The notes: a model not told the origin generated them from the letters alone. Positions 22,819 to 63,142 are shown, numbered from the stretch's first letter. The stretch: 64,000 nucleotides of DNA from Candidatus Komeilibacteria bacterium (GCA_048538275.1 JBLYPW010000004.1:7567-71566), one strand, 5' to 3'. Numbers and translations: made by a program.

Positions 22819-22915
22819 TGTTGTAAAAAAACTCTACAAATGTTAAAATATACAAGCCTGAAAGCCAAATAAACATTCACAATATCAGGTTGTTGATTAA
22901 TCTTTGAAAAACATT

Positions 22916-25207
22916 ATGGCAAAAAAGTCAAAAGCAAAAAAACGACTAACTGATAATGAAGTCTTATCACCGGAAACTAAAAAAGGCATCGCTATTATAT
23001 TAATATTTTTGGTTTCTCTATTATCTCTACTATCGCTTTTCAATTTAGCTGGTAGTTTTGGTTTATATATAGATCGTTTTTTAGGAATTATATTTGGCTG
23101 GGGCAAATGGCTTTGGCCTATATTATTATTGGCTTGGGGCTATGTCTTGCTAAACCCGGATCGCTACTTATTAAAACCAAGCAATTATCTCGGCCTATTC
23201 TTTGCCACTTTAAGCGGCTCGGGTCTATTGGAATTAATACATGATTTTAATAATATCGCCACCACCTTTAGTGTTAATAAAGGCGGCGGTTACATTGGTT
23301 TTGCTATCAACCACCCCTTACAGCAAGTTATGGGAGGTTTAGCCACCCTTGTAATACTACTAGGATTGTTTTTGATTTCATTATTAGTATCTTTCAATAT
23401 ATCATTGGATGAATTGGGCAATAAAATTAATATTTTTCGTCTGTTTTGGTTAAAAATCAAAACTCTGTCTAGAGAAAAATCTACTACTGGGTATGACGAC
23501 AATTATGAATATGAAGAAGAGGAAGAGGAGGAAGAGGAGGAAGAAGAAGAGGAAGGTGACGATACAGAAGAACAAAAAATAAAACAGAATTATTCTTCTA
23601 ATCAAGAAAAGAAAATTACTAAGCAAATCAAAACACCTGCTTCTGCTAAGCCTCGTCGCAATCCGGTTAAGGTGCCAATTGATTTATTGGACAGCAACGG
23701 CACCAACCCGACTAGTATAGATATAAATGTTAATGCGGATATTATACGCCGTACTTTTGAAAACTTTGGCATAGAGGTAACCATGGAAGAAGTTAATGTT
23801 GGACCGACCGTCACCCAATTTACCCTAAAGCCGGCCGAGGGCGTAAAACTTTCTCACATTACTAATCTGCACAATGATCTAGCGCTGGCATTAGCCGCTC
23901 ACCCCATCCGCATTGAAGCGCCTATCCCTGGCAAATCACTAGTTGGCATTGAAGTGCCCAATCAAAAAATAGCCACCGTAAAGCTGAGAGAAATTATTGA
24001 ATCAGTCGCTTTTAAAAACGGCTCTAGTAAATTGACCGTAGCCTTGGGCAAAAATGTTGCCGGTGATTGCCAAGTGGCCGACATCGCTAAAATGCCTCAT
24101 TGTTTAATTGCTGGCGCCACTGGCAGTGGTAAAAGTGTTTGTATCAATGACTTTATTATTAGTTTGCTTTATCAAAATAGTCCGGACGATTTAAAACTGA
24201 TCATGGTAGATCCTAAGCGAGTAGAGCTGTCTGTCTATAATAATATCCCTCATTTGTTGACGCCGGTTATCACCGAAGTTCCTAAAACGATCAATGCTTT
24301 GCGCTGGGCAGTCAATGAAATGGATGAGCGCTATAAACTATTAGCTAATGTGCACAAACGTAATATAGAAAGCTATAATCAAAGCGTATTAATAAATCAA
24401 TTACCTTATATAGTAATCATAATAGACGAGCTGGCGGATTTAATGGCAGTAGCTGCCCGTGAAGTAGAGGCCGCAATTATTCGTCTAGCGCAAATGGCAA
24501 GAGCTGTGGGCATCCATTTGGTAATAGCGACCCAACGCCCCTCTACCAATGTTATTACCGGTTTGATTAAAGCTAATATTACCACCCGTATTGCTTTTTC
24601 TGTTGCTTCACAGATTGATTCTCGCACTATTATTGATTCTTCTGGTGCCGAAAAACTACTGGGGCGAGGAGACATGCTCTTTACTTCTGCAGAGCTATCT
24701 AAACCTAGGCGTTTACAAGGTGCCTTTATCTCTGATAAAGAAATTAAACGGCTAACAGATTTTTGGAGAAGTCAGGGCGAACCAGAATATAAAGACGAAA
24801 TCATAGAAAGACAAAAAGGAATTAATTTGCCTGGCTCAGCCATGATGGATGATGATGACGATGAATTGTTACCAGACGCCCAAGAGGTAGTACTAAAAGC
24901 AGGAAAAGCTTCTGCCTCCCTATTACAACGTCGCCTGCGCGTTGGTTATGCTAGAGCAGCTCGCTTATTAGACCTTTTGGAAGGTCGCGGAATTATTGGT
25001 CCGTCTGAAGGAGCAAAGCCAAGAGAAATACTGCTCAATCAGGACGATCTGGAAGCCAATCTTGACACTAGAGAATATGAAGATGGGTGGGAAGATGCTG
25101 AAGAAGACAAAACAACCGATGACGAGTATAATGACAATGAAGAGGAGGAGGAAGAAACAGATGATCAGGATGGAGCAGACGAAGAAGAAGACCAGAAACA
25201 AAAATAG
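22916..25207 (+). CDS. ftsK: DNA translocase FtsK/SpoIIIE
   Basis: N-terminal TM segments, a poly-Glu linker, Walker A GATGSGKSVCIN, and a gamma-domain wHTH LLQRRLRVGYARAARLLDLLEGRGIIGP. The ORF is open from a TTG at 22904; the ATG at 22916 is preferred. Confidence 0.9.
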   Translation: MAKKSKAKKRLTDNEVLSPETKKGIAIILIFLVSLLSLLSLFNLAGSFGLYIDRFLGIIFGWGKWLWPILLLAWGYVLLNPDRYLLKPSNYLGLFFATLSGSGLLELIHDFNNIATTFSVNKGGGYIGFAINHPLQQVMGGLATLVILLGLFLISLLVSFNISLDELGNKINIFRLFWLKIKTLSREKSTTGYDDNYEYEEEEEEEEEEEEEEGDDTEEQKIKQNYSSNQEKKITKQIKTPASAKPRRNPVKVPIDLLDSNGTNPTSIDINVNADIIRRTFENFGIEVTMEEVNVGPTVTQFTLKPAEGVKLSHITNLHNDLALALAAHPIRIEAPIPGKSLVGIEVPNQKIATVKLREIIESVAFKNGSSKLTVALGKNVAGDCQVADIAKMPHCLIAGATGSGKSVCINDFIISLLYQNSPDDLKLIMVDPKRVELSVYNNIPHLLTPVITEVPKTINALRWAVNEMDERYKLLANVHKRNIESYNQSVLINQLPYIVIIIDELADLMAVAAREVEAAIIRLAQMARAVGIHLVIATQRPSTNVITGLIKANITTRIAFSVASQIDSRTIIDSSGAEKLLGRGDMLFTSAELSKPRRLQGAFISDKEIKRLTDFWRSQGEPEYKDEIIERQKGINLPGSAMMDDDDDELLPDAQEVVLKAGKASASLLQRRLRVGYARAARLLDLLEGRGIIGPSEGAKPREILLNQDDLEANLDTREYEDGWEDAEEDKTTDDEYNDNEEEEEETDDQDGADEEEDQKQK
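23506..23566 (+). repeat. Purine-rich (GAR)n simple sequence repeat encoding an E16-like acidic tract inside ftsK
   Basis: gaagaagaggaagaggaggaagaggaggaagaagaagaggaagg. Confidence 0.8.
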
Positions 25208-31780: not shown

Positions 31781-31887
31781 CCAAATTTCATAAATAACAA
31801 CCCTTGAGATAAAACCTTGTTCTTAAATTAAGAAAAAGGTTTTTTCTTTGTCAAAATCTTAAAAAAATTGTATAATTTTATTAGTTT

Positions 31888-32760
31888 ATGAAAAAAATTA
31901 CCAAAGCAATTATACCGGTAGCCGGTCTAGGTACTCGCTTTCTACCCGCTACCAAGGCTCAGCCCAAAGAAATGCTCACCTTGGTGGATAAACCACTCAT
32001 TCAATATATCGTTGAAGAGGCGGTAGCGGCTGGCATTGAACAGATTATTTTTGTCACTTCACAGACCAAGCGGGCTATTGAAGATCACTTTGATCGCAAT
32101 TTTGAGCTAGAATACCGCTTGCGACAAAAAAATAAAAAAGACGCATTAAAGGATATTACAAAAATTTCTGATCTAGCAGAATTTATATACATTCGTCAAA
32201 AAACACCTCGTGGCTTAGGTCACGCCATTCACTGTGCTAGCCCTTTAATCAATGATGAACCATTTGCTGTATTCTTAGGTGATGATATTATCGCAGCGCC
32301 GCAACCGGCCATCGCCCAATTGATAGAAACTTATAATAAATATGAAGACGTGGTGCTGGGTGCTGTTGAAGTAGCAAAGGATAAGGTGTCGCGCTACGGT
32401 ATTATCGCCGGCACTAAAATAGATAACAATGTTACAGAGGTTACAAATTTAATCGAAAAACCGACAGTCAAAGAAGCTCCTTCTAACTTAGCTATCATTG
32501 GTCGCTATATCTTGCGTCCGGAAATTATGACCATACTACAAGACACCAAGCCCGGCAAAGGAAATGAAATTCAATTAACCGATGCCTTGCAAACCCTAAA
32601 CAAATCACGCGCTATGTATGCTCGAAAAATAACCGGCCAGTATTTTGACTGCGGCAGCAAGCTGGGGTTTTTACAAGCCACCGTACACTACGGACTAGAA
32701 CACAGCAATCATAAAAAAGATTTTTTCCAATATCTAAAAACTATTATCAACAATAAATAG
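31888..32760 (+). CDS. galU: UTP--glucose-1-phosphate uridylyltransferase
   Basis: AIIPVAGLGTRFLPATKAQPKEMLTLVDKPLIQYIVEEA. Confidence 0.9.
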   Translation: MKKITKAIIPVAGLGTRFLPATKAQPKEMLTLVDKPLIQYIVEEAVAAGIEQIIFVTSQTKRAIEDHFDRNFELEYRLRQKNKKDALKDITKISDLAEFIYIRQKTPRGLGHAIHCASPLINDEPFAVFLGDDIIAAPQPAIAQLIETYNKYEDVVLGAVEVAKDKVSRYGIIAGTKIDNNVTEVTNLIEKPTVKEAPSNLAIIGRYILRPEIMTILQDTKPGKGNEIQLTDALQTLNKSRAMYARKITGQYFDCGSKLGFLQATVHYGLEHSNHKKDFFQYLKTIINNK

Positions 32761-34161
32761 ATGCCTGCAAAAAAAATAAAGTTATATATTCTGGTCTTGT
32801 TGCTGATGGCCATGCCCTTGTCCGGTTTTGGTTGTAAGTTCTCACAAAGTAATGAAGTGCAGCAACTAAACAAGCCTGTCAATTTGTCCTGGTGGGGCGT
32901 ATGGGAAGAATCCGCGCAAGTAGCCAGCCTGATAAATGCTTACCAATCCGTTCACCCTAATATAAACATAACTTATCGTAAGTTTCGCTGGGAAGAATAT
33001 GAAGCAGCCCTAACCCGTGCCTGGCTAGAGCAACGCGGTCCAGATATTTACTCTATTCCGGCAAGCTATCTACATCAATACCAAAGCTTGATCCAACCAA
33101 TGCCAGCAACCATGCGCTTACCCTTTGTGGAAATGCAAGGCGCTATAAAAAAAGAGCCTGTGACGGTGATAAAAACTGTCGCCGGACTCACGCCCAGCAA
33201 ACTAAAAGATTTATTTGTCGGCGCTATTGCTGATGAAGCGGTCATAGCTGATCAAATATACGGACTGCCTCTCAGTCTGGATAGTCTGGCCCTATACTAT
33301 AATCGTGACATTCTTAACAATGCCCGCATACCACTACCGGCAACCACCTGGTCAGAACTAGTAGAACAGGTGTCCCAACTGGCTGTTTTTGACCAAAATA
33401 ACAATATCAACCAAGCTGCTATTGCGCTGGGCACAAGCGATAACATTCCCCGTTCTAGCGATATTTTATCCCTACTAATGATGCAGAACGGCGCCACTAT
33501 GAGTGATGATGACGGCAGAGTAATTTTTAACCAGCCACCAGAAGGAGTAAATTTTTATCCGGCTAAAGACGCGCTAGACTTTTATACCAGCTTTGCCAAT
33601 ACCAGCAAGGCGGTCTATACCTGGAACGAAGACATGCCTGACGCTTTGGAAGCTTTTACTAGCGGTCGCCTCGCCTATTTTATCGGTTATAGCTACCAGC
33701 TACCCATCATCCGCGCGGCCGCTCCCAAACTAAACTTCAATGTCGCGCCCATGTTACAAACAATGCCCGATGTACAAGAAATAAATTTTGCCGACTGGTG
33801 GGCCCTAACCACTTATTTTGGCGCCGATGAAACTAAGATTGCTCCGGCTTGGAATTTTATAAAATTTATCACTACCACGCCGGAGGTATTGGGACCATAC
33901 TTGACAGAAGCAAAAAGACCAACCGCTCTCCGTGCTTTAATAAATGACCAAATACAACAAGACGGTATCTCTGTTTTTGCCAATCAAGTTTTGACCGCCC
34001 AAAACTGGTATCGTGGTTATGATGCCGTAGCGGCCGATCAAGCAATGCAGCATATGATTGATCAAGCCAATCACGACATTACCGATAAATTTACTCTCAA
34101 CAATTTACTAGACCTAACGGCCGATAAAATTAACCAAACCAATCAACCGCCACAACCATGA
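32761..34161 (+). CDS. Extracellular solute-binding protein (ABC transporter family-1 SBP-like lipoprotein), orphan
   Basis: Signal peptide with GFGC lipobox. SBP-like fold length. No permease or ATPase genes adjacent. Confidence 0.65.
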   Translation: MPAKKIKLYILVLLLMAMPLSGFGCKFSQSNEVQQLNKPVNLSWWGVWEESAQVASLINAYQSVHPNINITYRKFRWEEYEAALTRAWLEQRGPDIYSIPASYLHQYQSLIQPMPATMRLPFVEMQGAIKKEPVTVIKTVAGLTPSKLKDLFVGAIADEAVIADQIYGLPLSLDSLALYYNRDILNNARIPLPATTWSELVEQVSQLAVFDQNNNINQAAIALGTSDNIPRSSDILSLLMMQNGATMSDDDGRVIFNQPPEGVNFYPAKDALDFYTSFANTSKAVYTWNEDMPDALEAFTSGRLAYFIGYSYQLPIIRAAAPKLNFNVAPMLQTMPDVQEINFADWWALTTYFGADETKIAPAWNFIKFITTTPEVLGPYLTEAKRPTALRALINDQIQQDGISVFANQVLTAQNWYRGYDAVAADQAMQHMIDQANHDITDKFTLNNLLDLTADKINQTNQPPQP

Positions 34162-34937
34162 TAAAAAAAATTATTATCCTCATAGCGCTATTACTGCCAC
34201 TCGTCGGGCAAGCTGCCATCTTAGACAATCCCGAATTGTTTCCCCCAAATAATAGTAGCCATACTACCTGTATAGAAGACGGTAGTTGTACCCTAGACCA
34301 AGGCTTTGGCGCCTTTGTAGCGCTCGGACAATGGGGTCTTGGCGTGGTGGGCGCGGCCGCTTTATTGATGTTTATTTATGGTGGTTTTCAGTGGCTAACG
34401 GCTGCCGGCAATCCCAGCAAAATTGAATCCGGCAAAAAAACACTGGTAGCATCATTAACAGGTGTGATAATTGTATTATTGTCTTGGCTTATAGTACAAA
34501 GCATTTACCAACCTCTGACTGGTAATAATTTGACTGGCGCGGGCGCGGTTAATCAAGCTGATATTTGTCTCAGCGCCGCAGATGGTACCGATTGCCGTGG
34601 TGGCTTGGGACAATGTCAAAATGGCGAGTGTGTACAAAAGTGCGACCTATTAAATGATCCTTCCTATGCTTGCCGGGAAAGCGTCTATTGTGATACAGAT
34701 TATGAAATACCAGGACAATGTTTTGGAGCTAGTAATATCCTTTGTTGCAAAGAATACCAGGCACCTGCTTTAGAAACAAAAGACCTAAACAATTATAATA
34801 TAAATCCAGTAAACGACTGTACCAATGTGTACGGGCAGGAATACGGTTGTTACGAACCCTACCTTTGTTGGGAAGGTACAGAAAAAAGTGGAGGACACTG
34901 TATAAACGACCTTGTGTGTTGCGTGTTAGGAGAATAA
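34158..34937 (+). CDS. TrbC/VirB2-like pilin (CPR T4SS-pilin type) with about 140-aa Cys-rich C-terminal extension
   Basis: Signal peptide. Core GGFQWLTAAGNPSKIESGKKTL plus C-terminal TM. About 19 Cys afterwards. ATGA overlap with the SBP. Confidence 0.7.
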   Translation: MIKKIIILIALLLPLVGQAAILDNPELFPPNNSSHTTCIEDGSCTLDQGFGAFVALGQWGLGVVGAAALLMFIYGGFQWLTAAGNPSKIESGKKTLVASLTGVIIVLLSWLIVQSIYQPLTGNNLTGAGAVNQADICLSAADGTDCRGGLGQCQNGECVQKCDLLNDPSYACRESVYCDTDYEIPGQCFGASNILCCKEYQAPALETKDLNNYNINPVNDCTNVYGQEYGCYEPYLCWEGTEKSGGHCINDLVCCVLGE

Positions 34938-34963
34938 AACTTATAAAAATAATCATATCTTGT

Positions 34964-35287
34964 ATGAAAAAAATAACCCCTTGGCTTTTTAGCCTCACCG
35001 TGCTTTGGACCATTGCCTTACCAGCCTTGGCAGTACAAATAAACAACCCTATTCAGGTTAATTCTGCTGCCGAGCTGGCCGGCTTGATCATCAAAACCTT
35101 ACTTGGCTTGGTCGGCATAATTGCCCTAATTTACTTTATTTTAGGCGGTTTTATGTGGATGACAGCCGCTGGCAATCAAGAAAAAATCAAAAAAGGTCGT
35201 GACACTCTGGTATGGGCGACAATCGGCTTGGTAATAATCTTCGCTTCCTATAGTATTGTATATTTTGTACTCGGTATTTTTGATTAG
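34964..35287 (+). CDS. TrbC/VirB2-like pilin paralog 2
   Basis: Signal peptide. GGFMWMTAAGNQEKIKKGRDTL. C-terminal TM. Confidence 0.75.
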   Translation: MKKITPWLFSLTVLWTIALPALAVQINNPIQVNSAAELAGLIIKTLLGLVGIIALIYFILGGFMWMTAAGNQEKIKKGRDTLVWATIGLVIIFASYSIVYFVLGIFD

Positions 35288-35296
35288 AAAAAAACA

Positions 35297-35325
35297 TTGT
35301 AAAAAACAAGCTTCTCTGTTATAAT
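35297..35325 (+). promoter_or_regulatory. Sigma70-like promoter TTGTAA, 17 nt spacer, TATAAT upstream of pilin paralog 3
   Basis: Consensus -10 with 17-nt spacing. RBS AAAGGGGGTGA before the ATG at 35420. Confidence 0.5.
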
Positions 35326-35419
35326 TTTACTAGTTATCAACATATAACAACCTTATTATTAATCATTTTTGGCTGGCCCTTATGACGCTAGCCTAAAACT
35401 GAAAGGGGGTGAAACTGGT

Positions 35420-35800
35420 ATGAGAAAAATTTTCTCCAAGACCAATATCATCGCTTTTGTCATGTTGGCCTTGATGATGATGCCAATAGTGACAATGGCT
35501 GCAGGCAATGTTGACATTGGCATTAATGATGCCGCCAATATCGGCCTGGGCAATACAGACGCTAAAGACGTCGTGACTAACATAATCCAAGTTATTCTCG
35601 GATTCTTGGGCTTAGTTGCAGTTATTATCATCTTAGCTGGTGGTTTCATGTGGATGACAGCCGGTGGTAATGAAGATAAAGTAAAAAAGGGTCGCCAATT
35701 GATTATCAATGGTATTATTGGCCTGATTATCATTTTAGCTGCCTTCTCTATCGCGACTTTTGTGCTCAATTCCTTAAAATCAGCAACCGGATTAAACTAA
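35420..35800 (+). CDS. TrbC/VirB2-like pilin paralog 3
   Basis: GGFMWMTAGGNEDKVKKGRQLI. Confidence 0.75.
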   Translation: MRKIFSKTNIIAFVMLALMMMPIVTMAAGNVDIGINDAANIGLGNTDAKDVVTNIIQVILGFLGLVAVIIILAGGFMWMTAGGNEDKVKKGRQLIINGIIGLIIILAAFSIATFVLNSLKSATGLN

Positions 35801-35892
35801 CTATTTTATAGTCTAGACTATAGTGGATCAAATCCTTGGTCCACTTAGGCCTAAACTTTAATTAGGGTTATAAATAAGTATTAAATAATACT

Positions 35893-36279
35893 ATGATGAA
35901 AAATATCTTTAGTCGTACCAATATTGTCGCCTTTCTATTGTTGGCTATAATGTTTGTGCCAGCTATTACCATGGCTAGCGGATTAGATACTAACTTGGGT
36001 CTAAATTATGCTGGCAATATTGGCCTGGGCGAAACAGACGCCATAGACGTTGTTACAAATATCATACAAGTAATCTTGGGCTTCTTGGGATTGGTGGCGG
36101 TAGTAATTATCTTAATTGGTGGATTCACTTGGATGACAGCCGGTGGTAATGAGGATAAGGTCAAAAAAGGCCGCACCTGGATTATCAACGGCGTTATTGG
36201 CTTAGTGATAGTGCTAGCTGCTTTTTCCATCGCTTCCTTTGTTATCAATGCCAGCAAGAACGCTACTGGCCTTAATTAA
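35893..36279 (+). CDS. TrbC/VirB2-like pilin paralog 4
   Basis: GGFTWMTAGGNEDKVKKGRTWI. Confidence 0.75.
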   Translation: MMKNIFSRTNIVAFLLLAIMFVPAITMASGLDTNLGLNYAGNIGLGETDAIDVVTNIIQVILGFLGLVAVVIILIGGFTWMTAGGNEDKVKKGRTWIINGVIGLVIVLAAFSIASFVINASKNATGLN

Positions 36280-36363
36280 TATAGTCTAAATTTTGGCGGG
36301 CCAGACTTGGCCCGCCCTGATGTGGCCTATATTATGATTTGGTTAAATAAAAAAAATCAATCT

Positions 36364-36750
36364 ATGTTATTTGTCAGCCTAATTTTATTTATGGCTGCTT
36401 TTGTTTTGTTTACCACGATTAGCCCTGCTCTAGCCTCTTCCGGCCTAGATGATGCTAAAGAGGGCCTAGGACAGGCCGCTCGTTATGGCGGCTTTACGAG
36501 CGACGCAGAAGGACCAACTAGTCCAGTAGATTTAGCTTCAAAAATAATTAAGACAATTCTTGGTTTTGTTGGCACTATATTTTTAATCCTTATTATAGTC
36601 TCCGGCTTCCAGTGGATGACAGCCGGTGGTAATGAAGAAACTATAAAAAAAGCCCGCGGTAGAATGACTAGCGCCGTTATTGGTTTGGCAATCATTCTCG
36701 GGGCTTGGGTAATCACCGACTTTGTAATTAATTCTATAGTATCTTTATAA
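36364..36750 (+). CDS. TrbC/VirB2-like pilin paralog 5
   Basis: SGFQWMTAGGNEETIKKARGRM. The start could instead be 36307 or 36334. Confidence 0.7.
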   Translation: MLFVSLILFMAAFVLFTTISPALASSGLDDAKEGLGQAARYGGFTSDAEGPTSPVDLASKIIKTILGFVGTIFLILIIVSGFQWMTAGGNEETIKKARGRMTSAVIGLAIILGAWVITDFVINSIVSL

Positions 36751-36751
36751 A

Positions 36752-37150
36752 ATGAATTTTCATAACAAAAAAAAGCTGCTACTCTGCTTCATTTTAATGG
36801 GCTTGATTGTGTTACCCGCCTTAGGCCACGCCGCGCTTCTAAAAGAAGGCACCGACATAGGCGGCGGTGCCAAAAATTTTGCTGAACACTTGGGTTATCA
36901 AACAAACAATACTAATACACCAACCGATGTCGCAGCATATATCATAACCTTGCTATTAAGCTTTGTGGGCACCGTCTTTGTAATATTAATTATCGTCTCC
37001 GGCTTCCAGTGGATGACGGCCGGTGGTAATGAAGAGACTATCAAAACATCACGCAAGCGAATAATTAATGCGACTATTGGCTTAGTAATAGTTTTAGCCG
37101 CTTTTGTTATCACCAGGTTTGTCTTATTTAATATACAATATGCCGTTTAA
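36752..37150 (+). CDS. TrbC/VirB2-like pilin paralog 6
   Basis: SGFQWMTAGGNEETIKTSRKRI. Confidence 0.75.
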   Translation: MNFHNKKKLLLCFILMGLIVLPALGHAALLKEGTDIGGGAKNFAEHLGYQTNNTNTPTDVAAYIITLLLSFVGTVFVILIIVSGFQWMTAGGNEETIKTSRKRIINATIGLVIVLAAFVITRFVLFNIQYAV

Positions 37151-37556
37151 AATAGTAAAAAAAACACTAAGCATAGTTAGCCTCTTTATTCTGCTGCTAC
37201 CCGCTGTGGTAGGGGCGGCTGGAAATCAGCCAGCCAGCGACCTTGATCAATTGCAAATGGGACAATTTGATGCGTTAGAAAATGCCGTCACCGGGCAAGG
37301 CGACCAAGAACCAGCCTCAGTAGATAGTATAGTGGCCTACATTATCAGGATGGCGCTTAGCTTTCTCGGCTTTATATTTATAATATTAATTATCGTCTCC
37401 GGCTTCCAGTGGATGACGGCCGGGGGCAATGAAGAGACTATCAAAACATCACGTAAACGCATGACCAATGCTGTCATTGGACTAGCCATAGTAATAGCCG
37501 CCTTTGCTATCAGTGAATTTGTATTAGGAACAATTATCAATGCCACATTACGCTAA
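37140..37556 (+). CDS. TrbC/VirB2-like pilin paralog 7
   Basis: SGFQWMTAGGNEETIKTSRKRM. Overlaps paralog 6 by 11 nt. Confidence 0.75.
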   Translation: MPFKIVKKTLSIVSLFILLLPAVVGAAGNQPASDLDQLQMGQFDALENAVTGQGDQEPASVDSIVAYIIRMALSFLGFIFIILIIVSGFQWMTAGGNEETIKTSRKRMTNAVIGLAIVIAAFAISEFVLGTIINATLR

Positions 37557-38040
37557 AATTACCGTTCTAGTTGTTTTTTCCCTCACCATCCTAATGAGTG
37601 CGGGTATTTTTTTTAGTCAACCCGCTCTTGCCAGTTCTGACCTGGGCAATACCATCTTAAACGAACACCAACAATTTCAAAACGAAGTAGGGGTGCTAAC
37701 CCCAGAAAGAGACTTGCCTGATATTATTGTTATGCTGATTAAATCAATCCTCGGGCTATTGGGCCTAGTTTTTGTCGTATTAATACTACAGGGAGGCTTT
37801 CAGTGGATGACTGCCGGGGGTAATGAAGCCTCAATAAAAAGCGCTAAGAATAGATTAAAAAACGCTATTATCGGATTGCTCATAATTATAGCGGCTTATT
37901 CTATTACTTTGTTTGTAATAAATGCTCTCAAAAAAAGCACCGGCGCTCAATATCAAAGCAGCTCCTGCCAAAGTAACGATGATTGTCCTAGTGGTTTTCG
38001 TTGTAGCGAGGCTTTACACACCTGCGTAATAAAGTTATAA
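37540..38040 (+). CDS. TrbC/VirB2-like pilin paralog 8 with short Cys-rich C-terminal tail
   Basis: GGFQWMTAGGNEASIKSAKNRL followed by SSCQSNDDCPSGFRCSEALHTCV. Confidence 0.7.
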   Translation: MPHYAKITVLVVFSLTILMSAGIFFSQPALASSDLGNTILNEHQQFQNEVGVLTPERDLPDIIVMLIKSILGLLGLVFVVLILQGGFQWMTAGGNEASIKSAKNRLKNAIIGLLIIIAAYSITLFVINALKKSTGAQYQSSSCQSNDDCPSGFRCSEALHTCVIKL

Positions 38041-38098
38041 ACCAAAATCATCAGCTAATAAAAAACACACCTTCCTAGGTGTTTTTTTATTTATCTTT

Positions 38099-39700
38099 TT
38101 ATTGAACCGCAAATATCTCTGCCTCTTCGTCACTATACACTGGCAGGAAATAAACATTGTTTATTAGTTTAGCTAATAGCTTATCATTCTTCTTGTCAAC
38201 CAAAATGTACTTGGCTTGCAAACGATCATGAAAAAGCTGATAAGGCGGTACCAGATTACGATCTTTCACCAAATCAGTTAAAGCCAAAACTCCTTGCGGA
38301 TACACGGGCAAGCTTAAGCGGGGATCAAGTCCGTAAAAATAATTATTATTGGTATTATAATAAAACAAACTGGGCCATTGTCCCCAATTATCATTTACGA
38401 CCAAACTATGATCAGGCGTATTCATTGACAACCATTGCGCGGCAGCCTGCAGGTGAGTTAACGATATGCCCTTGTTACTGTCTGTTTTCACCATATAAAA
38501 ATTACGTCCTGTGATCAGCAAGGCTATAAAAAGCCCTACCCACAACCAACGACGACGACTTTTATACGGCTGGCAATAATTTTTCCACCAGGCTGATAAG
38601 CCCTGTCCTCCCAATAAATCACGCCACAATAAAGCTAAAAATATGACCATTGCCGGTGCCGAGTATTCAATAAAACGACGCGCGTTAATTGTTGCTATAA
38701 ACATAATAAGGGAAAAAAGCGCCATAAAAACAGTTGCCTTTTCTATTTTTCGCGGTCGCAATATCCATAATAAACTAGCCGCCATAATAACAAACAACAA
38801 ACCGGCGCTGCCCAATAAAGCATATATATTATAAGGATACCACTCGCTCCCTACATTAAGCAGCCGATAATCTATATTGCGAACCGCTATATCTAAGACT
38901 TGCTGACCGTAAAAATATAAGTTTTGTGGCCAATATGGATGACTGATAACTCCTCCGATAATGCCCAACAAACTCAACAATAACAAGCCCCATTTGCGCG
39001 CCTGCTGTTTACCAACCAACCCCAATTTAATTAAGACTTGTTTGATTCTAGATCTTAGTTGGGCTAATTTGTCATCACTGTGCGAACGATAAAAAATATC
39101 TATTAGCAACCACAAACCGATAACAGCCGGCAAAATCAAAAATCCTCCATACAGCCAAACAAATAACCAACTAATCAAAAACACCTTGAAATAACGATAG
39201 TGCATCGCCCAGTGCATGCCCAACAATAAAAATATTAAAGCCCAAGACGAGGCTTTTACCAAAGAAATTCTAAACAAAAAAGGATAAACACTCAATAATA
39301 CCGCCAGCCAGGCTGCTGGCCACGGCGCTCGATATTTTTTCAAACCAAAATATAATAAGGTTAATAAAAGGCTAGAAGTGAAGACGGTGGCTAATTTTAT
39401 ACCCACCAATGGCGGCAACCACTTTACCCAAGGGACGAGCCACAAGTGATATAGCCAGTGATGATCAGTAAAGCTTTGCGCTAAAGTCGTGCCTTGCAAC
39501 CAAGGAAAGCTGCCTAATATTGGTTCATTCTCCATTAAAACTGCCATTTTCGCGTGATAAAAAGCATCCGGATCCATAAATGTGGGGCTGACTTGTATCC
39601 AAGCTAGCAGCAAAAAACACAATAAAAAAACCACCAATACATCAAGCTGATGGGACAATAAAAAACCGATCACATTGCGCCACTTGTTCTTTAAAAACAT
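38099..39700 (-). CDS. Polytopic membrane protein, putative GT-C-fold glycosyltransferase-like
   Basis: 533 aa, more than 10 TM. Conserved-looking DPDAFYH loop after TM1. Family assignment tentative. Confidence 0.45.
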   Translation of the reverse strand: MFLKNKWRNVIGFLLSHQLDVLVVFLLCFLLLAWIQVSPTFMDPDAFYHAKMAVLMENEPILGSFPWLQGTTLAQSFTDHHWLYHLWLVPWVKWLPPLVGIKLATVFTSSLLLTLLYFGLKKYRAPWPAAWLAVLLSVYPFLFRISLVKASSWALIFLLLGMHWAMHYRYFKVFLISWLFVWLYGGFLILPAVIGLWLLIDIFYRSHSDDKLAQLRSRIKQVLIKLGLVGKQQARKWGLLLLSLLGIIGGVISHPYWPQNLYFYGQQVLDIAVRNIDYRLLNVGSEWYPYNIYALLGSAGLLFVIMAASLLWILRPRKIEKATVFMALFSLIMFIATINARRFIEYSAPAMVIFLALLWRDLLGGQGLSAWWKNYCQPYKSRRRWLWVGLFIALLITGRNFYMVKTDSNKGISLTHLQAAAQWLSMNTPDHSLVVNDNWGQWPSLFYYNTNNNYFYGLDPRLSLPVYPQGVLALTDLVKDRNLVPPYQLFHDRLQAKYILVDKKNDKLLAKLINNVYFLPVYSDEEAEIFAVQ

Positions 39701-49734: not shown

Positions 49735-50835
49735 TTATTGACGTATTGGCATTACAATATATAAATATCCTTCTCTGTCGGTTGGTACAAATACGCCTGG
49801 CGCGCCTTGATTACTGAGCTTTATGGTGACGCTTTCCGATTGTAGACCATTTAGGCCGTCTAGTAAATAACGATAGTTAAACACCATATCTATTTCATCA
49901 CCCTTAATATCGGCATTAATTTTTGTTATATTTTCCCCTAAACCACCATTTGCAGACACTATTATTATCTCTCCTTTACTTGGTAAAAACGTCATTTTTA
50001 CGTCATTTATGCCTGGTTTACAAAACAAAGCTGCTCCTTTTATTGCCTTCACTAGTTCGGTTATTTTAGTAGTAACAATCGTCTTTTCTTCTTTGGGGAT
50101 AATTTGTTCATAATCTGGGTAATTACCATCTATTAAACGAGAAACTAATTTCACATTATCATAGCTAAACAATATTTGATCATCGTTCATACTAATGCTG
50201 ACCTCTCCTTGACCGCTCACCCCTAAGCCACGAAATAACTCTTGTAATGTTTTTAACGGCACAATTATTTTTTTATGTAGCTCGCTTTTAGTCTCTATTT
50301 TCTTTTCCGCTAAACGATAGCTGTCGGTAGCGGCCACCACCAAGTTGTTTTCACTAAAATTAAAAAATACTCCACTTATTTCTGGCCTACTTTCATCAAC
50401 ACTAACGGCAAATAATGTTTGACTCAACAATTCTTGCAAATTTTCTTTTTTTATTATTACTTGCTCTTCCGAAGAAACTTCTGGAATCAAGGGATAGTCC
50501 TCTGCGCTCATTCCCTTAATCTCTGTTTGTGATTTTTTACTGTCTATTTTTAATCCTTCATCGCTTACCGTCAAAGTAATATTTTCTTTTGGTAAAAGAT
50601 TTATATAGTCGGTTAATAGTCTAGCAGGAACAGTATAACTTCCGTCCTTTTCTACCTTCCCCCGTATTTGTACATTTATGCCTATTTCCAAATTGGTAGT
50701 AGCTAAAGTAATAATGCCATCGACCGCCTTTAATAAAACATTATTTAAAATGGGAAGATTAGCATTACGAGAAGCAATATGATTTACTATTGATAACCCT
50801 GTATTCAAATTTTCTTGCGTGCAAATGATTTTCAT
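49735..50835 (-). CDS. dnaN: DNA polymerase III beta sliding clamp
   Basis: MKIICTQENLNTGLSIVNHIAS. 366 aa. Confidence 0.9.
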   Translation of the reverse strand: MKIICTQENLNTGLSIVNHIASRNANLPILNNVLLKAVDGIITLATTNLEIGINVQIRGKVEKDGSYTVPARLLTDYINLLPKENITLTVSDEGLKIDSKKSQTEIKGMSAEDYPLIPEVSSEEQVIIKKENLQELLSQTLFAVSVDESRPEISGVFFNFSENNLVVAATDSYRLAEKKIETKSELHKKIIVPLKTLQELFRGLGVSGQGEVSISMNDDQILFSYDNVKLVSRLIDGNYPDYEQIIPKEEKTIVTTKITELVKAIKGAALFCKPGINDVKMTFLPSKGEIIIVSANGGLGENITKINADIKGDEIDMVFNYRYLLDGLNGLQSESVTIKLSNQGAPGVFVPTDREGYLYIVMPIRQ

Positions 50836-51113
50836 TATTATTAATATAAATAATTATTTAATTTTATTAATCATTGTAATAATAAGGGGGTGTTAATATC
50901 TTAATAAGTGTTAAAGAGATAGAATTTTAAGTGCTTTTATACTCTACTTATCTCTGGACAACTCACGCTATTGTTGCGGACAAGGAAAGAACCATTTGTT
51001 AATAAAATCCCAGAGAGAAAAGTTATGAACTATTTGTTAAATCTTACTAACAGAAAGAAAGAGAATTATCCTATGCTTGTTTACGGTTTACTCAACAGGA
51101 AAGCCACAATATA

Positions 51114-52508
51114 TTAGGAGGCGTAGAGCTGTTGTCTGATCAAATCAATGTCGCTTTTTATCTTGCTGTTGTTTTTTATTTCATTTTCTATTTTGTTGCA
51201 GGCATGAATAGCGGTGGTATGATCACGACCCCCCAGTTCTTGTCCGATAGACGGGTAGGAGCTTTTTAGCTCTTCTCGCAATAACCACATTACGATCTGA
51301 CGAGGAATAACCATTTCTTTCCGACGACAACTGCCAACCAAATCATCCATTGATATATCATAAAATTCAGAAACCTTATTAGCGATTTTTTTTGGCGTTA
51401 GGCCGCTTTTTTTCGCGCTTAATGAAAGTGAACCAAGAACATTTTTTACGGTTTCTAGTGTCAGCTTACTATTATTTAATTGATGATAGGCAATGATTCT
51501 GTTTAGGGCGCCTTCTAGCTCACGAATATTACTTTGAATATTTTCTGCGACATAAGACAGTATTTCTGGAGATAAATCAAAATTTTTAGAATTACATTTG
51601 GCTTCCAAGATGGCATAGCGCGTTTCCAGGTCGGGTACAGATATGTCAGCAATCATTCCCCACTCAAAACGAGAAATCAGCCTTTGTTCAACCTCGGCAA
51701 TTGCCTTTGGCGGGCGGTCAGAAGTCATAACAATTTGCCTGTTTTTTTGGTGAAGCTCATTAAAGGTGTGAAAAAATTCTTCTTGGGTTTGTTCTTTACC
51801 GGCTATAAACTGAATATCATCTATTAATAAAACGTCAACAGTACGGTAATATTTTTTTAACTCATCAACATTGCCTCGTTTAATAGAGTTGATGTAGTCA
51901 TTAACAAACTTTTCACTGTTTATGTAAACCACTCTGCTGCTGGGAGTTTTTTCTAAAATAGCATTACCGATGGCTTGTAAAAGGTGTGTTTTTCCTAAAC
52001 CAACGCCACCATATAAAAACAAGGGGTTATAAACTTCGCCCGGCCTATCGACAACCGCCTTAGCGGCCGCCGTTGCCAAATCATTGCCCTTTCCTACAAT
52101 AAAGGACTGAAAAGTATATTTTGGGTTTAAATTAAAAGAATTGGTTTTCTCGTTGGTTGTGGTTGTTTGTTTTGTGTCCGTTTGTATTTTACTATTGGTG
52201 GATAAAACGGCAGGCGAATCATCCGTGGTTGCGTCAGCAAGAGAGGCGCGCGCCGGCTTATTAGCACTCACTTTATAAACAACAGTGGTAATCTTTCCTT
52301 GGCTGCTTTTATTAATAGCAGCGATTATATTGTCATTATATTTGTTTTCTAACCAGGCCTTGGTAAAAGCATTGGGGACGCCAACAATAGCAGAGTTGCC
52401 ATCTATATCAGCAATAAACGTATTTTTAAACCAGGTGGTAAAATTTGCCTTTGAAATTGTGAGCTCCAGCTCACCAAGTACCGCTTCCCAAAGTTGGTCT
52501 GCAAACAT
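51114..52508 (-). CDS. dnaA: Chromosomal replication initiator DnaA
   Basis: N-terminal LWEAVLGELE. AAA+ Walker A GGVGLGKTHLL. C-terminal DNA-binding domain. Confidence 0.95.
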   Translation of the reverse strand: MFADQLWEAVLGELELTISKANFTTWFKNTFIADIDGNSAIVGVPNAFTKAWLENKYNDNIIAAINKSSQGKITTVVYKVSANKPARASLADATTDDSPAVLSTNSKIQTDTKQTTTTNEKTNSFNLNPKYTFQSFIVGKGNDLATAAAKAVVDRPGEVYNPLFLYGGVGLGKTHLLQAIGNAILEKTPSSRVVYINSEKFVNDYINSIKRGNVDELKKYYRTVDVLLIDDIQFIAGKEQTQEEFFHTFNELHQKNRQIVMTSDRPPKAIAEVEQRLISRFEWGMIADISVPDLETRYAILEAKCNSKNFDLSPEILSYVAENIQSNIRELEGALNRIIAYHQLNNSKLTLETVKNVLGSLSLSAKKSGLTPKKIANKVSEFYDISMDDLVGSCRRKEMVIPRQIVMWLLREELKSSYPSIGQELGGRDHTTAIHACNKIENEIKNNSKIKSDIDLIRQQLYAS

Positions 52509-55740: not shown

Positions 55741-55815
55741 GCTCTCGTAGTTCAACGGATAGAACAAGGCACTCCTAACGCCTAGATGTAGGTTCGATTC
55801 CTGCCGAGAGCACCA
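55741..55815 (+). tRNA. tRNA-Arg (anticodon CCT), encoded CCA
   Basis: Hand fold: acceptor GCTCTCG/CGAGAGC, D GTTC/GAAC, anticodon loop CTCCTAA with an A31:C39 mismatch, T-arm GTAGG TTCGATT CCTGC. Confidence 0.8.
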
Positions 55816-55945
55816 CTTAGGAAAGCTCAACACCGCGTGTTTGATTTTTTTTGTATTTAATTTCGGATTAAAAACGGAATACGCGATTTTGTTTGAGCAA
55901 TGAAAAACCCCTTAGAAGCTATCAAAAAGCGGCGCTTGCTACCTC

Positions 55946-55974
55946 TTGACTTTTATGGCATAATATGCTAAGAT
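55946..55974 (+). promoter_or_regulatory. Consensus-like promoter TTGACT, 17 nt spacer, TAAGAT driving the GC-rich downstream segment
   Basis: Hexamers and spacing. RBS GAGGT 6 nt before the ATG at 56045. Confidence 0.5.
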
Positions 55975-56044
55975 CTGAAACAGAGTGGTTGGGCTATAGT
56001 AGTTTGACCAAAATCGCACATTCCCAATAGAAACGAGGTAACAA

Positions 56045-56520
56045 ATGCAGATCGTATTAACGTTTCTTTATCTGCTGGTGGGATTTCTACTGGCGATTCC
56101 GTACTGCCTGCTAGCGGGATGGAGCACGGAGAGTTACCCGATGGTTGCTTTCGTGATGCCTGATTCCTGTTCATCTGGCTCATGTTGGCGTTTTTCACAG
56201 GCGTGGTGGACGAGGGTCATCCGATCAGCTTTAACTGGCGCGCTGCCTTCGGCAAGGGTGACCGCCGAAGACTGACGGGATCTCCTGTCATGCTCTGGGC
56301 GTGGACTATCTACGGTTTTCTACCGGTGACTATCCACTGGAGCGCAGTGTTTTTAGGTAAAGTTGGCTATGAGACGGCCAGCTCGTTTCTGGATGCACAT
56401 CGTTACGGGAGCCCGTTCTTAGTCCTTATAGCGACCTTTATCCTACTAATTCTCAGCCGGCTAGCTATTAATGCGTCTGGTGCGGCAAAGAATATATGGA
56501 CGCGGCTCGTCAATCAGTAG
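56045..56520 (+). pseudogene. GC-rich (above 50%) frameshifted small membrane-protein gene, likely horizontally acquired
   Basis: Frame 2 ORF 56045..56275 (MQIVLTFLYLLVGFLLAIPYCLLAGW...) and frame 1 ORF 56164..56520 (FLFIWLMLAFFTGVV...ILLILSRLAI) overlap and together encode about 4 TM helices. G+C-rich codon usage unlike host genes. Confidence 0.4.
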
Positions 56521-56541
56521 CGAATGGTGTTCTATTCAATT

Positions 56542-56583
56542 GGGGCTCTCCACGGATAATCGTGAGTTGAGCCCCTTTTCTTT
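56542..56583 (+). terminator. Rho-independent terminator GGGGCTC/GAGCCCC plus TTTTCTTT
   Basis: 7-bp GC stem and T-run 22 nt after the 56520 stop. Confidence 0.6.
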
Positions 56584-57189
56584 AATTTCCTCTTTATTTT
56601 TATGTCATAATTGTGTTCGCAGCGCGCCTTCGGAATTATTGGTTGTAAAAGGACTGGAAATTGTTATCGGTGTGACAAAGTTATATTTTGCAAGGCGTTT
56701 TCCAGTTGCAGTAGGCATCAGAACCAGTTCGCGCTATTTTAAAAACAGAGCGCTAAGGCGCCCACGGGAAGCATTGGGAGGCGCTCACATTGACAAAAAG
56801 TATAATATTTGTTATTATTGCTTGATTGATTATAGAAATATAACAGCAAAAGCTTGCTTATAGGAGGCACATATTGGAAGCATTAGTGTTTCATTTGAAC
56901 GAAAGACTTGGTGTTTTTTTAGAAACAAAGCCTTTTTTTGTTTGTAACCCGGGTGCTTGTCTATTTAAATCCGGTCGCAATTTTGCCACAAGCAATTAGT
57001 TCAGTTTTGGAGAGTCGGTAGAAGGAGCCTCGCCGGGCATGTGATATATGTTTTATGCCATACAAACAGCTTTTGTTTTTATTGGGATAAAGGAGAAAAA
57101 TTCGGCTGTTTTTGGTTCAATGCTAGTCAGTTTTATTTTATCCATAATAATTATAGTTGCGGTCACAGTTAGAAACCATGATGACCGCA

Positions 57190-57224
57190 CCCCCCCCCAT
57201 TTTAAAGAATAAGTGGGGTTTTTT
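57190..57224 (+). terminator. C-run (C9-10) followed by CCCCA/TGGGG hairpin and a T6 tract
   Basis: Preceded by a GCGGTCA/TGACCGC hairpin at 57159..57188. Confidence 0.35.
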
Positions 57225-57238
57225 GTTCCACGTGGAAC
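57225..57238. repeat. Perfect 14-bp palindrome GTTCCACGTGGAAC (copy 2 of 2)
   Basis: Same TTGTTCCA..TGGAACRA context as copy 1. Confidence 0.8.
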
Positions 57239-57467
57239 AAAAGAAGAGTGCTATTTGGCGGCATTACCACCTAATCTCTTGTTTTAAGCAGTTTATCATA
57301 AAGGACAGATTTAGAGGTTTTTATCGTTTTCTTGGCTTAGAGCGAGCAAATGTTGTAAATAATAAACAGCTTTTCAATTTCAATACCTTGACAACTATGT
57401 ATAATTGTGCTAAATTAAATAATCAATGAAATTTGACAATTTTAATTAAACAACAAAAGGAGAAAAA

Positions 57468-58122: not shown

Positions 58123-58199
58123 GGGGTATTAGCTCAGTTGGCTAGAGCGCTTCCTTCGCATGGAAGAGGTCGCCGGTTCAAATCCGGCATACTCCACCA
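58123..58199 (+). tRNA. tRNA-Ala (anticodon CGC), G3:U70, encoded CCA
   Basis: Hand fold: acceptor GGGGTAT/ATACTCC, anticodon loop TTCGCAT, T-arm GCCGG TTCAAAT CCGGC. Confidence 0.85.
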
Positions 58200-58227
58200 C
58201 CCAAAACCAACATTTGTTTAAGAATTT

Positions 58228-58653
58228 ATGCAAATTGATAAAAAGAAAACATACTTGGCGTATATAGTTAACGCCGTAGGTTCTAAACTATGGCGGGATT
58301 TATATTTTGAAGACGGTAAGAACATAACAAGCTCCGGCGAATATAGCTGCGCTGTTTTTGTTTCCACGGTCTTATATATTTTGGGTTGGTTGGATGGTTT
58401 GCATGCGACTGTAATTTCAACAGAAGCAGCTCTGCAAAATTCGGGTTGGCAAGTTGTTGAAAAACCAAAAGCAGGAGACGTGATTGTTTGGCCGGAAAAC
58501 GACCAGGGTAACAAACACATTGGTTTTGTAATTTGCGACAGTGAAGCGGTAAGTAATAGTAGTCGGTTAAAAAGAATAGTTAAACATCATATAACTTACA
58601 AAGGGAAAAGAAATTGGCAAGCATTGTATCGTTTTCCAGGGATGAATGATTGA
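58228..58653 (+). CDS. NlpC/P60-like papain-fold cysteine peptidase domain protein, no signal peptide
   Basis: SSGEYSCAVFV (the Cys motif, cf. DCSGFV) and GDVIVWPEN...HIGFVI (the His motif, cf. GDLVFF..HVGIYIG). Confidence 0.5.
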   Translation: MQIDKKKTYLAYIVNAVGSKLWRDLYFEDGKNITSSGEYSCAVFVSTVLYILGWLDGLHATVISTEAALQNSGWQVVEKPKAGDVIVWPENDQGNKHIGFVICDSEAVSNSSRLKRIVKHHITYKGKRNWQALYRFPGMND

Positions 58654-58688
58654 CAGAAGCGAAAAAAATCATATAATAGAATCTACGT

Positions 58689-58765
58689 GGGCCCGTAGCT
58701 CAGTTGGTTAGAGCGCTTGCATGGCATGCAAGAGGCCGCCGGTTCGAATCCAGTCGGGTCCACCA
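58689..58765 (+). tRNA. tRNA-Ala (anticodon GGC), G3:U70, encoded CCA, one C:A mismatch in the T-stem
   Basis: Hand fold: acceptor GGGCCCG/CGGGTCC, anticodon loop ATGGCAT, T-arm GCCGG TTCGAAT CCAGT. Confidence 0.8.
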
Positions 58766-62560: not shown

Positions 62561-63142
62561 ATGAACAAAAAAAATATTATTGCCGGTGTGGATGAAGCCG
62601 GGCGCGGCGCTTGGGCTGGCCCGCTGGTAGCGGCGGCCGTTATTCTTAAAAACTTTTCTCGTCGTCAAGAATTACGAGACTCAAAAAAGTTGACTGATAA
62701 ACAGCGTCGTTGTTTATATAAAGACATAAAGAAAGAATGTGTATATTCCATTGGTCGGGCGACGACAAAAGAAATTTTTAAGCTGGGTTTGCAAGCCGCC
62801 AATATTTTGGCAGCGCAACGCGCGCTTGATGGGCTGACGACAAAGCCAGATAAGGTTTGTCTTGATATGATACGTGGTTTTCATTATCATATACCGTTTG
62901 AATTAATTATAGATGGCGATGATAAAGAAGCTTGCATACAAGCGGCAAGTATTGTGGCAAAGGTTACTAGGGACAATGCATTAATTCGTTTAAGCAAGCG
63001 TTTTCCGGCTTATTTGTGGGAGGAAAATAAAGGATATGGCACAGCGGCTCATCGCCAAGCCTTATTACGGCACGGCATAAGCCAGCAGCATAGAATAAAG
63101 TACAAACCTATAAGAGAAATACTTGACTCTAACCAAAGATAG
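62561..63142 (+). CDS. rnhB: Ribonuclease HII
   Basis: IAGVDEAGRGAWAGPLVAAAVIL. Confidence 0.9.
   Translation: MNKKNIIAGVDEAGRGAWAGPLVAAAVILKNFSRRQELRDSKKLTDKQRRCLYKDIKKECVYSIGRATTKEIFKLGLQAANILAAQRALDGLTTKPDKVCLDMIRGFHYHIPFELIIDGDDKEACIQAASIVAKVTRDNALIRLSKRFPAYLWEENKGYGTAAHRQALLRHGISQQHRIKYKPIREILDSNQR

Follow-up and report, generated by a model that had tools for sequence, protein, structure and literature searches.

Tandem arrays of genes for VirB2-like pilins of type IV secretion systems (T4SSs) are already known in Patescibacteria from work published in 2023 and 2025. In Southlakia epibionticum, an essential series of predicted pilins lies inside a T4SS gene cluster (Wang et al. 2023; PMC10633639). 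A search of 3,035 Patescibacterial genomes (Quinonero-Coronel et al. 2025; PMC12102498) reported VirB2-like pilins in 1,948 VirB4-positive assemblies, 1,135 of which have them close to virB4, and 441 arrays of 2-11 pilin genes, an array being at least two pilin genes in tandem or with one non-pilin gene between them. The same census found few relaxases and T4SS genes frequently near dnaA, and treats VirB2-like proteins as absent from the MPF-FATA class. A 2025 review repeats the array findings. Here, we analyze an array of eight pilin-like genes in a 64,000-nucleotide stretch of DNA (the window) from Candidatus Komeilibacteria bacterium, an uncultured, ultra-small member of class ABY1 (GCA_048538275.1, JBLYPW010000004.1:7567-71566). 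The source is a metagenome-assembled genome at NCBI, in which the array sits on an 89,089-bp contig.

The array is probably the pilin-subunit operon of a Patescibacteria-type T4SS in the Komeilibacteria chromosome, the accompanying VirB4 being expected from the gene content of relatives. The evidence comprises the family assignment of the eight proteins, the conservation of their order across related genera, and the whereabouts of VirB4 in related genomes.

Family assignment and architecture of the eight proteins

The listing of open reading frames (ORFs) revealed eight consecutive, co-directional genes on the plus strand at 34158-38040 (paralogs 1-8; Table 1), which makes the locus an array as defined in the census (PMC12102498). 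The NCBI Prokaryotic Genome Annotation Pipeline (PGAP) called the same eight genes, MFW0838139.1-MFW0838146.1. The small genes of the original prediction are thus present in both listings, the sole difference being the start of paralog 5, which PGAP places at 36334, 30 nt upstream of 36364 (138 aa, MIWLNKKNQSM...). The upstream start yields the better predicted signal-peptide n-region. PGAP named paralogs 1, 5, and 6 'pilin', paralog 2 'TrbC/VirB2 family protein', and the remaining four 'hypothetical'.

All eight proteins passed the Pfam gathering score of 26.6 bits for PF18895 (T4SS_pilin), scoring 29.8-41.3 bits. The gathering score of PF04956 (TrbC/VirB2), 27.9 bits, was passed by paralog 2 only; paralogs 4, 5, and 6 scored 25.2, 26.5, and 19.4 bits, respectively, and the Pfam scan returned no PF04956 match for paralogs 1, 3, 7, and 8. 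The pilin assignment made earlier therefore stands for all eight proteins with respect to T4SS_pilin and for one with respect to TrbC/VirB2. All eight also matched NCBIfam NF045849, the Mbov_0395 pilin-like conjugal transfer protein of a Mycoplasma integrative and conjugative element (ICE), with E values of 7e-10 to 3e-6 and nearly the full 80-residue profile covered. The scores, 26.6-38.4 bits, are under the equivalog cut-off of 40 bits, and the paralogs are, on this measure, relatives of the family, not members. The matches hint at VirB2-like proteins within monoderm MPF-FATA systems; our literature search turned up no publication on NF045849. None of the eight matched N_methyl, the type IV pilus N-methylation motif, in the Pfam scan, and their leader sequences are Sec-type, not class III.

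As predicted earlier, every paralog begins with a signal peptide. This has a small-residue (AxA-like) end and is followed by two hydrophobic helices. The interhelix loop is net basic (3-4 K+R vs 1-2 D+E). This loop (W-M-T-A-G-G-N-E-x-K...) should be cytoplasmic, with the variable N-terminal segment and the C-terminal tails facing outward. Divergence is concentrated in that N-terminal segment, and cysteines are nearly confined to predicted outward segments (18 in paralog 1, four in paralog 8); the single cysteine of paralog 6 lies inside its signal peptide. The AlphaFold2 (AF2) model of paralog 4 was a confident hairpin of helices 50-81 and 87-125, with a predicted local distance difference test (pLDDT) score of ~90. 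That of paralog 1 contained hairpin helices 46-81 and 86-121 and a tail module, 131-200, with block-mean pLDDT values of mostly 64-87. This Cys-rich tail matched no family in Pfam or NCBIfam and no fold. The core motif reported originally exists, its quoted form being approximate only: the residues invariant across the eight are G, F, W, T, A, G, and N. The DNA version of the motif occurred seven times at no more than two mismatches, against zero expected from shuffles, and all eight copies were recovered as a single direct-repeat family.

Conservation of gene order

Relatives were collected using an alignment of the eight paralogs as the query and one genome per species; all figures for related loci refer to the best 79 loci (L001-L079) among 297 relatives. 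The 79 loci are from Komeilibacteria, Magasanikbacteria, Falkowbacteria, Uhrbacteria, Kerfeldbacteria, and unnamed Patescibacteria. Table S1 of the census places Komeilibacteria, Magasanikbacteria, Uhrbacteria, and Kerfeldbacteria in class ABY1 (PMC12102498). Many array contigs (L008, L012, L014-L017, and others) are titled 'uncultured Gammaproteobacteria bacterium'; these are apparently placeholder or wrong labels. Based on the profile of the eight paralogs, most of the 79 loci hold tandem arrays of 4-13 genes. Synteny of the array locus extends to other Komeilibacteria, the locus itself is found throughout the ABY1 species, and the orthologous arrays keep their genes separate. Many array members in related loci carry N- or C-terminal extensions.

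Orthology was evaluated by BLAST and a neighbour-joining tree covering the window, L001, L003, L007, L029, and L078. Positional ortholog groups were recovered for gene 1 (long, with a Cys-rich tail, and positional orthologs in L007, L003, L029, and L001), for gene 2 (short, forming a clean clade), and for genes 3/4. Genes 5-8 clustered largely by lineage, not by position; the best match of paralog 8 was the last array gene in L007 and L003. As judged from these comparisons, the array order is conserved: a Cys-tailed gene 1, a short gene 2, and the probable major pilin, with the distal genes turning over by lineage.

Synonymous divergence was saturated for every paralog pair (dS of at least 1.37), so all of the duplications are old and recent duplication is not supported. 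The ratio dN/dS was below 1 in all pairs for which it could be computed. Paralogs 3 and 4, with 72-73% protein identity, a dS of 1.88, and a dN/dS of 0.11, are old duplicates under purifying selection. The near-identical stretch of ~75 nt noted earlier in paralogs 6 and 7 is real, but its coordinates in paralog 6 were ~12 nt off and are corrected in Table 1. The two copies, at an offset of 400, share a 43-nt exact run and are 93-97% identical in 30-nt windows, vs 20-70% in the flanks. Inside the tract, dS was 0.29 (25 codons), vs 1.6-3.2 outside. In a Sawyer-type permutation test, the longest run of matching polymorphic sites was 26 (p < 0.0002). The low dS and this run support short gene conversion between paralogs 6 and 7; of the two explanations originally offered, conversion or recent duplication, it is the former that is supported.

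A candidate major subunit

Paralog 3 is preceded by the array's only strong Shine-Dalgarno sequence, AAGGGGGTGA, located after a promoter-like site (Table 1). In most of ten related arrays, the 3/4-type ortholog has a stable hairpin at its 3' side and the widest flanking gaps, and the type is the most conserved among the array genes. Based on its own promoter-like site, strong Shine-Dalgarno sequence, 3' hairpins, and top conservation, we infer that the 3/4 type is probably the abundant major subunit and that the other paralogs are minor subunits. Repeat and promoter scans of the array revealed no silent-cassette or invertible-promoter features.

Whereabouts of VirB4

The Pfam scan of window ORFs of at least 120 aa, which covered all but two at the right end, 62561-63142 (193 aa) and 63188-63742 (184 aa), detected no VirB4, VirB6, VirD4, or relaxase, as originally noted for the surroundings of the array. 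The sole FtsK/VirD4-superfamily protein in the window, 22904-25207, has 4TM, alpha, motor, and gamma domains and is a genuine FtsK. Similarly, none of the 79 related loci had a VirB4 within 10 kb. The flanks were examined in two ways, by clustering ORFs into families and by screening for Walker-A motifs with Pfam as the second step. The candidates were PNPase, FtsK, IF-2, SMC, DnaA, EngA, PilB, and an AAA_14/DUF4143 ATPase, never VirB4; two further candidates had no Pfam match. Absence of nearby T4SS genes is normal for the ABY1 lineage.

Four of the array-bearing genomes, those of L002, L005, L010, and L029, are VirB4-positive in Table S1 of the census (PMC12102498). For that of L010 (GCA_000992085.1), Table S3 gives VirB4, TrsD, and VirB3 as coding sequences (CDS) 794-796. 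The L010 array, KKQ40371.1-KKQ40379.1, is on a 12.7-kb contig (LBTN01000021.1) that has no VirB4-like ORF. Of the two options in the original prediction, that the pilins feed a distant apparatus is therefore the better one. Six of the seven L010 array proteins tested passed PF18895. They do not appear among the eight Table S3 rows for this genome, where only KKQ40626.1 is entered as VirB2, and, in the excerpts of Table S3 examined, the rows resting on PF18895 alone are all flagged as near virB4 (PMC12102498). Since these rows lie near virB4 and the L010 array is unlisted, the census seems to under-count arrays distant from virB4. As far as these supplementary tables go, a virB4-centred survey may miss arrays of the ABY1 type (PMC12102498).

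The upstream lipoprotein gene

The stop codon of an orphan solute-binding lipoprotein (SBP) gene overlaps the start of paralog 1 (Table 1). The nearest solved relatives of the SBP are maltose, trehalose, and sugar binding proteins, and the family has a conserved GFGC lipobox-like motif. In 46-50 of the 71 related loci with upstream sequence, the gene immediately before the array, in the same orientation, encodes an SBP_bac_1 protein of 455-490 aa. The gap between the two has a median of -5 nt, and many loci have the 4-nt overlap seen in the window. In 43 related loci, the SBP gene is in turn preceded by an NTP_transferase gene. Clustering of flanking ORFs revealed no ABC ATPase gene in any related locus and no ABC permease nearby. 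The outer neighbours vary by lineage and include S15/NYN/PNPase, glycosyltransferase family 2 (GT2), a monogalactosyldiacylglycerol (MGDG)-synthase-like glycosyltransferase, DUF2079, and an STT3-like membrane protein; because they differ, the link between SBP and array outlasts local synteny. We did not meet this linkage in the literature surveyed on Patescibacterial pilins.

Fused and giant relatives

Searching 1.84 billion cluster representatives with a profile yielded 78,866 relatives at E ≤ 0.001. Many of the top relatives hold 2-17 matched stretches, the 17 of P0050 (1775 aa) being counted from the listing alone. Examples are P0046 (820 aa), P0047 (555 aa), P0053 (234 aa), and L018:3053-4480. 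Three examined in sequence have 2, 6, and ~8 hairpin units with a period of ~90-110 aa: one signal peptide is followed by linker-helix-loop-helix repeats. As these contain no internal signal peptides, they are true fusions. Different hairpins would therefore act jointly in such proteins, which favours a heteromeric structure over interchangeable variants.

In related loci, a pilin domain also stands at the N-terminus of proteins of 2,400-3,500 aa (L006:9992-20347, L009:3042-13508, L031:9764-19468, L046:10007-17323, and L063:10001-19363), each preceded by a 600-700-aa pilin-domain protein. The context of these genes is housekeeping (signal peptidase I, histidyl-tRNA synthetase), with no VirB4 nearby.

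Chromosomal context and neighbouring genes

According to the Pfam scan, the window encodes polA, uvrB, ruvA, rpoB, rpoC, ftsK, recA, wzx/wzy-like genes, PGI, yebC, ruvC, glgA, a phosphorylase, a class A penicillin-binding protein, dnaN, dnaA, rnpA, yidC, a bactofilin, trxB, and gdh. The array's G+C content is the same as that of its flanks. Since dnaN and dnaA (49735-52508) are 11.7-14.5 kb downstream and the minimum of the cumulative GC skew falls near 50-52 kb, the array is close to the replication origin. Pilin arrays, besides virB4, tend toward the origin. In two other lineages, dnaA lies ~8 kb upstream of the array (L023:799-2154, L060:2219-3571).

The gene convergent with the array (38099-39700) encodes a recurrent array neighbour that appears weakly STT3/oligosaccharyltransferase-like; its family follows the array in nine related loci. 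Large polytopic membrane proteins, fam13 and fam19 among them (e.g. L058:7103-8686, L068:14832-16835), recur beside arrays and comprise an STT3-like protein, DUF2079, and an unassigned family; GT2 and MGDG-synthase-like genes recur there as well. N-glycosylation of the pilins, an idea prompted by the NTP-transferase, GT2, and STT3-like/DUF2079 neighbours, was dropped because N-x-S/T sequons were not enriched in the outward parts of 120 pilin ORFs (z of 0.58 and -1.29). Pseudopilin-like genes of the type IV pilus kind, which carry N-methylation motifs, occur in ~20 Magasanikbacteria-type loci at 2.5-4.6 kb upstream of the array (L005:2381-4809, L044:3790-5178), and in L019 a PilB-type ATPase gene lies 1.1 kb downstream (L019:14047-15759).

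Two other regions of the window drew attention. At 55815-57460, ~1.6 kb beside tRNA-Arg(cct) has no convincing ORF and a raised G+C content of 0.44; Rfam, even at relaxed thresholds, gave far-sub-threshold chance matches only. Located a few kb from dnaA, rnpA, and yidC, it may be origin-region or RNA sequence. At 58123-58765, a 141-aa CHAP-domain protein with no obvious signal peptide is encoded between tRNA-Ala (cgc) and tRNA-Ala (ggc).

Table 1. Features of the array and its immediate surroundings. Positions are counted from the first nucleotide of the window. MFE, minimum free energy.
Feature	Position	Strand	Description
Promoter-like site before NTP_transferase gene	31848-31876	+	11/12 match
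NTP_transferase (sugar-1-phosphate nucleotidylyltransferase-like)	31888-32760	+	PF00483 E 1.3e-30; conserved upstream member
Orphan sugar-type solute-binding lipoprotein (SBP)	32761-34161	+	SBP_bac_1 E 1.7e-15; stop overlaps paralog 1 start by 4 nt
Pilin paralog 1	34158-34937	+	259 aa; hairpin and C-terminal tail, 16 Cys in two modules; PF18895 38.8 bits
Pilin paralog 2	34964-35287	+	107 aa, shortest; PF18895 39.1 bits, TrbC PF04956 30.4 bits
Promoter-like site	35297-35325	+	TTGTAA-17-TATAAT, extended TG, ahead of paralog 3; consensus match only
Pilin paralog 3	35420-35800	+	126 aa; candidate major subunit; PF18895 33.5 bits
RNA hairpin after paralog 3	35810-35857	+	MFE -18.1 kcal/mol, z -3.4; no U-tract
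Pilin paralog 4	35893-36279	+	128 aa; candidate major subunit; PF18895 40.5 bits
G+C-rich RNA hairpin after paralog 4	36277-36334	+	MFE -29.6 kcal/mol, z -6.5; no U-tract
Pilin paralog 5	36334-36750	+	138 aa; alternative start 36364; PF18895 41.3 bits
Pilin paralog 6	36752-37150	+	132 aa; PF18895 35.3 bits
Putative gene-conversion tract, paralog 6 copy	36976-37052	+	partner 37376-37452 in paralog 7
Pilin paralog 7	37140-37556	+	138 aa; 11-nt overlap with paralog 6; PF18895 29.8 bits
Pilin paralog 8	37540-38040	+	166 aa; short C-terminal 4-Cys tail; 17-nt overlap with paralog 7; PF18895 36.4 bits
Bidirectional intrinsic terminator	38057-38091		common with convergent gene; MFE -12.1 kcal/mol, z -5.9; A-run/U-run on either side
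Convergent polytopic membrane protein	38099-39700	-	533 aa; no Pfam match; TIGR04154 archaeo_STT3 E 1.3e-8, far below cut-off

Interpretation

We propose that the hairpins would form a membrane pool from which a VirB4/TrsD/VirB3 core encoded elsewhere extracts them and assembles a single heteromeric filament or conduit at the surface. Paralogs of the 3/4 type would supply the abundant major subunit, and the Cys-tailed gene 1, the short gene 2, and the distal genes 5-8 would provide minor subunits with specialised roles. Birth-and-death evolution and short gene conversion would diversify the exposed portions of the distal gene products, and the co-transcribed orphan SBP could be a surface partner. 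There is no relaxase, and the context is housekeeping. The system would likely be used for contact or exchange with a host cell, not conjugation. Considering the positional ortholog clades (1, 2, and 3/4) and the natural fusions, we infer that a single co-assembling set is to be favoured over the alternatives.

Several points weigh against this proposal. The 2025 review notes that pilus formation is yet to be demonstrated for any VirB2-like protein of Patescibacteria. Covalent multi-hairpin fusions are poorly suited to a classical pilus of free subunits. Seven of the eight paralogs are below the TrbC PF04956 cut-off. Fold searches using the models of paralogs 4 and 1 returned generic helical hairpins only, with no VirB2 or TraA, and a profile of the eight proteins matched no solved pilin among PDB sequences; the helical hairpin is so small that both searches are uninformative. 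The 64-kb window has no T4SS core gene, and a VirB4 in this genome is expected from relatives only. Finally, the promoter, Shine-Dalgarno, and hairpin arguments consist of consensus matches and predicted folding.

A different use of the same proteins would be as interchangeable, alternative major pilins for surface variation or host-strain matching, which was proposed for VirB2 paralogs of Bartonella and Anaplasma and suggested for Patescibacteria by the published survey (PMC12102498). Such a role would suit the concentration of divergence in the outward-facing segment, the clustering of genes 5-8 by lineage, and the conversion tract of paralogs 6 and 7. We nevertheless consider it unlikely: orthologs of genes 1, 2, and 3/4 keep their positions in different genera, their dS being saturated and their dN/dS low; all eight genes are intact and follow one another closely in one direction; there was no sign of silent cassettes or invertible promoters; and the multi-hairpin fusions imply joint use. 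It is more doubtful that the hairpins are a VirB4-independent, heteromeric membrane scaffold or channel that acts with the SBP lipoprotein in uptake or attachment. The frequent SBP gene directly upstream, often overlapping pilin 1, the lack of ABC transporter genes in any locus and of VirB4 within 10 kb in all 79, the polytopic fused proteins, and the pilin domains that anchor the giant proteins would all suit it. However, homology points to T4SS pilin families, the four related genomes checked encode VirB4, the Saccharibacteria pilin series is inside an essential T4SS cluster (PMC10633639), and SBP adjacency could be inherited synteny without shared function. Conserved gene order, hairpin fusions, and operon coupling to the SBP gene also suggest, as a rather long shot, that the ABY1 hairpins are ordered parts of a fixed heteromeric conduit, a T4SS-derived device for capture or import of host-derived molecules.

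It is very improbable that the array is what remains of an integrated conjugative element after loss of its transfer genes. The pilins do have relatives among conjugative pilins and in the Mycoplasma ICE family, but G+C content matches the flanks, these are housekeeping with no integrase, relaxase, or tRNA boundary, and the locus is shared by other Komeilibacteria and ABY1 species. A mobile-element origin was rejected on composition, context, and synteny. That the ORFs are pieces of one larger repeat protein, a possibility raised in the original prediction, is refuted by the sequence, and so is the idea that they are decaying pseudogenes. Fused multi-hairpin proteins do exist in other organisms, but they lack internal signal peptides; here, each unit is a separate gene with its own start, signal peptide, and stop, called as such by PGAP and kept separate in orthologous arrays, with dN/dS <1 in every computable pair.

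Patescibacteria represent a large share of uncultured bacterial diversity and apparently live on other cells. The T4SS and its pilin series are essential in the sole species tested. If the array is a pilin operon of such a T4SS, it offers testable handles on the structure and its cargo: in one large class, the pilin genes are separate from those of the ATPase core, are linked to a gene for a binding lipoprotein, and form an array of conserved internal order that probably includes one major subunit. Three modest leads are new, namely the coupling to the SBP gene, the conserved order with its likely major pilin, and the fusion proteins.

Comparison with known systems

The archaeal Ced/Ted DNA-import pili reportedly have VirB2-like subunits and no relaxase, and possibly serve import; they are set apart by description, belonging to another domain of life, sequence family, and gene context. 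The VirB2 clusters of Bartonella and Anaplasma share with the present array the tandem amplification and diversification of a pilin gene. However, those clusters belong to diderm pathogens, in which they are located inside or next to the virB operon and are credited with a role in antigenic variation, whereas gene order here is conserved across genera. The Mycoplasma ICE family NF045849 also occurs in a monoderm host with an MPF-FATA-type system, but as a single gene on a mobile element. The TrbC/VirB2 pilins of diderms (T-pilus, RP4, F-like) have the same signal peptide, hydrophobic hairpin, and basic loop. In contrast to those systems, the host here is a monoderm with a T4SS of MPF-FATA type, many paralogs take the place of the single gene, some with Cys-rich outward tails, and no VirB5, VirB6, or VirB4 is nearby.

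The closest counterparts are the Patescibacterial VirB2-like arrays, including SEML1_0006-0019 of Southlakia epibionticum and the 441 arrays of the census (PMC12102498). Like the present locus, these are tandem, co-directional, and divergent, match the same Pfam family, PF18895, and are chromosomal, without a relaxase, and near dnaA. They differ in that the array described here lies neither in nor beside a VirB4 cluster and follows an orphan solute-binding lipoprotein gene. It is also from class ABY1, whereas the arrays of the census are most abundant in Microgenomatia and Saccharimonadia. Finally, the identity of the paralogs here averages ~37% with a maximum of 73%, compared with published values of 25% and 54%, respectively (PMC12102498).

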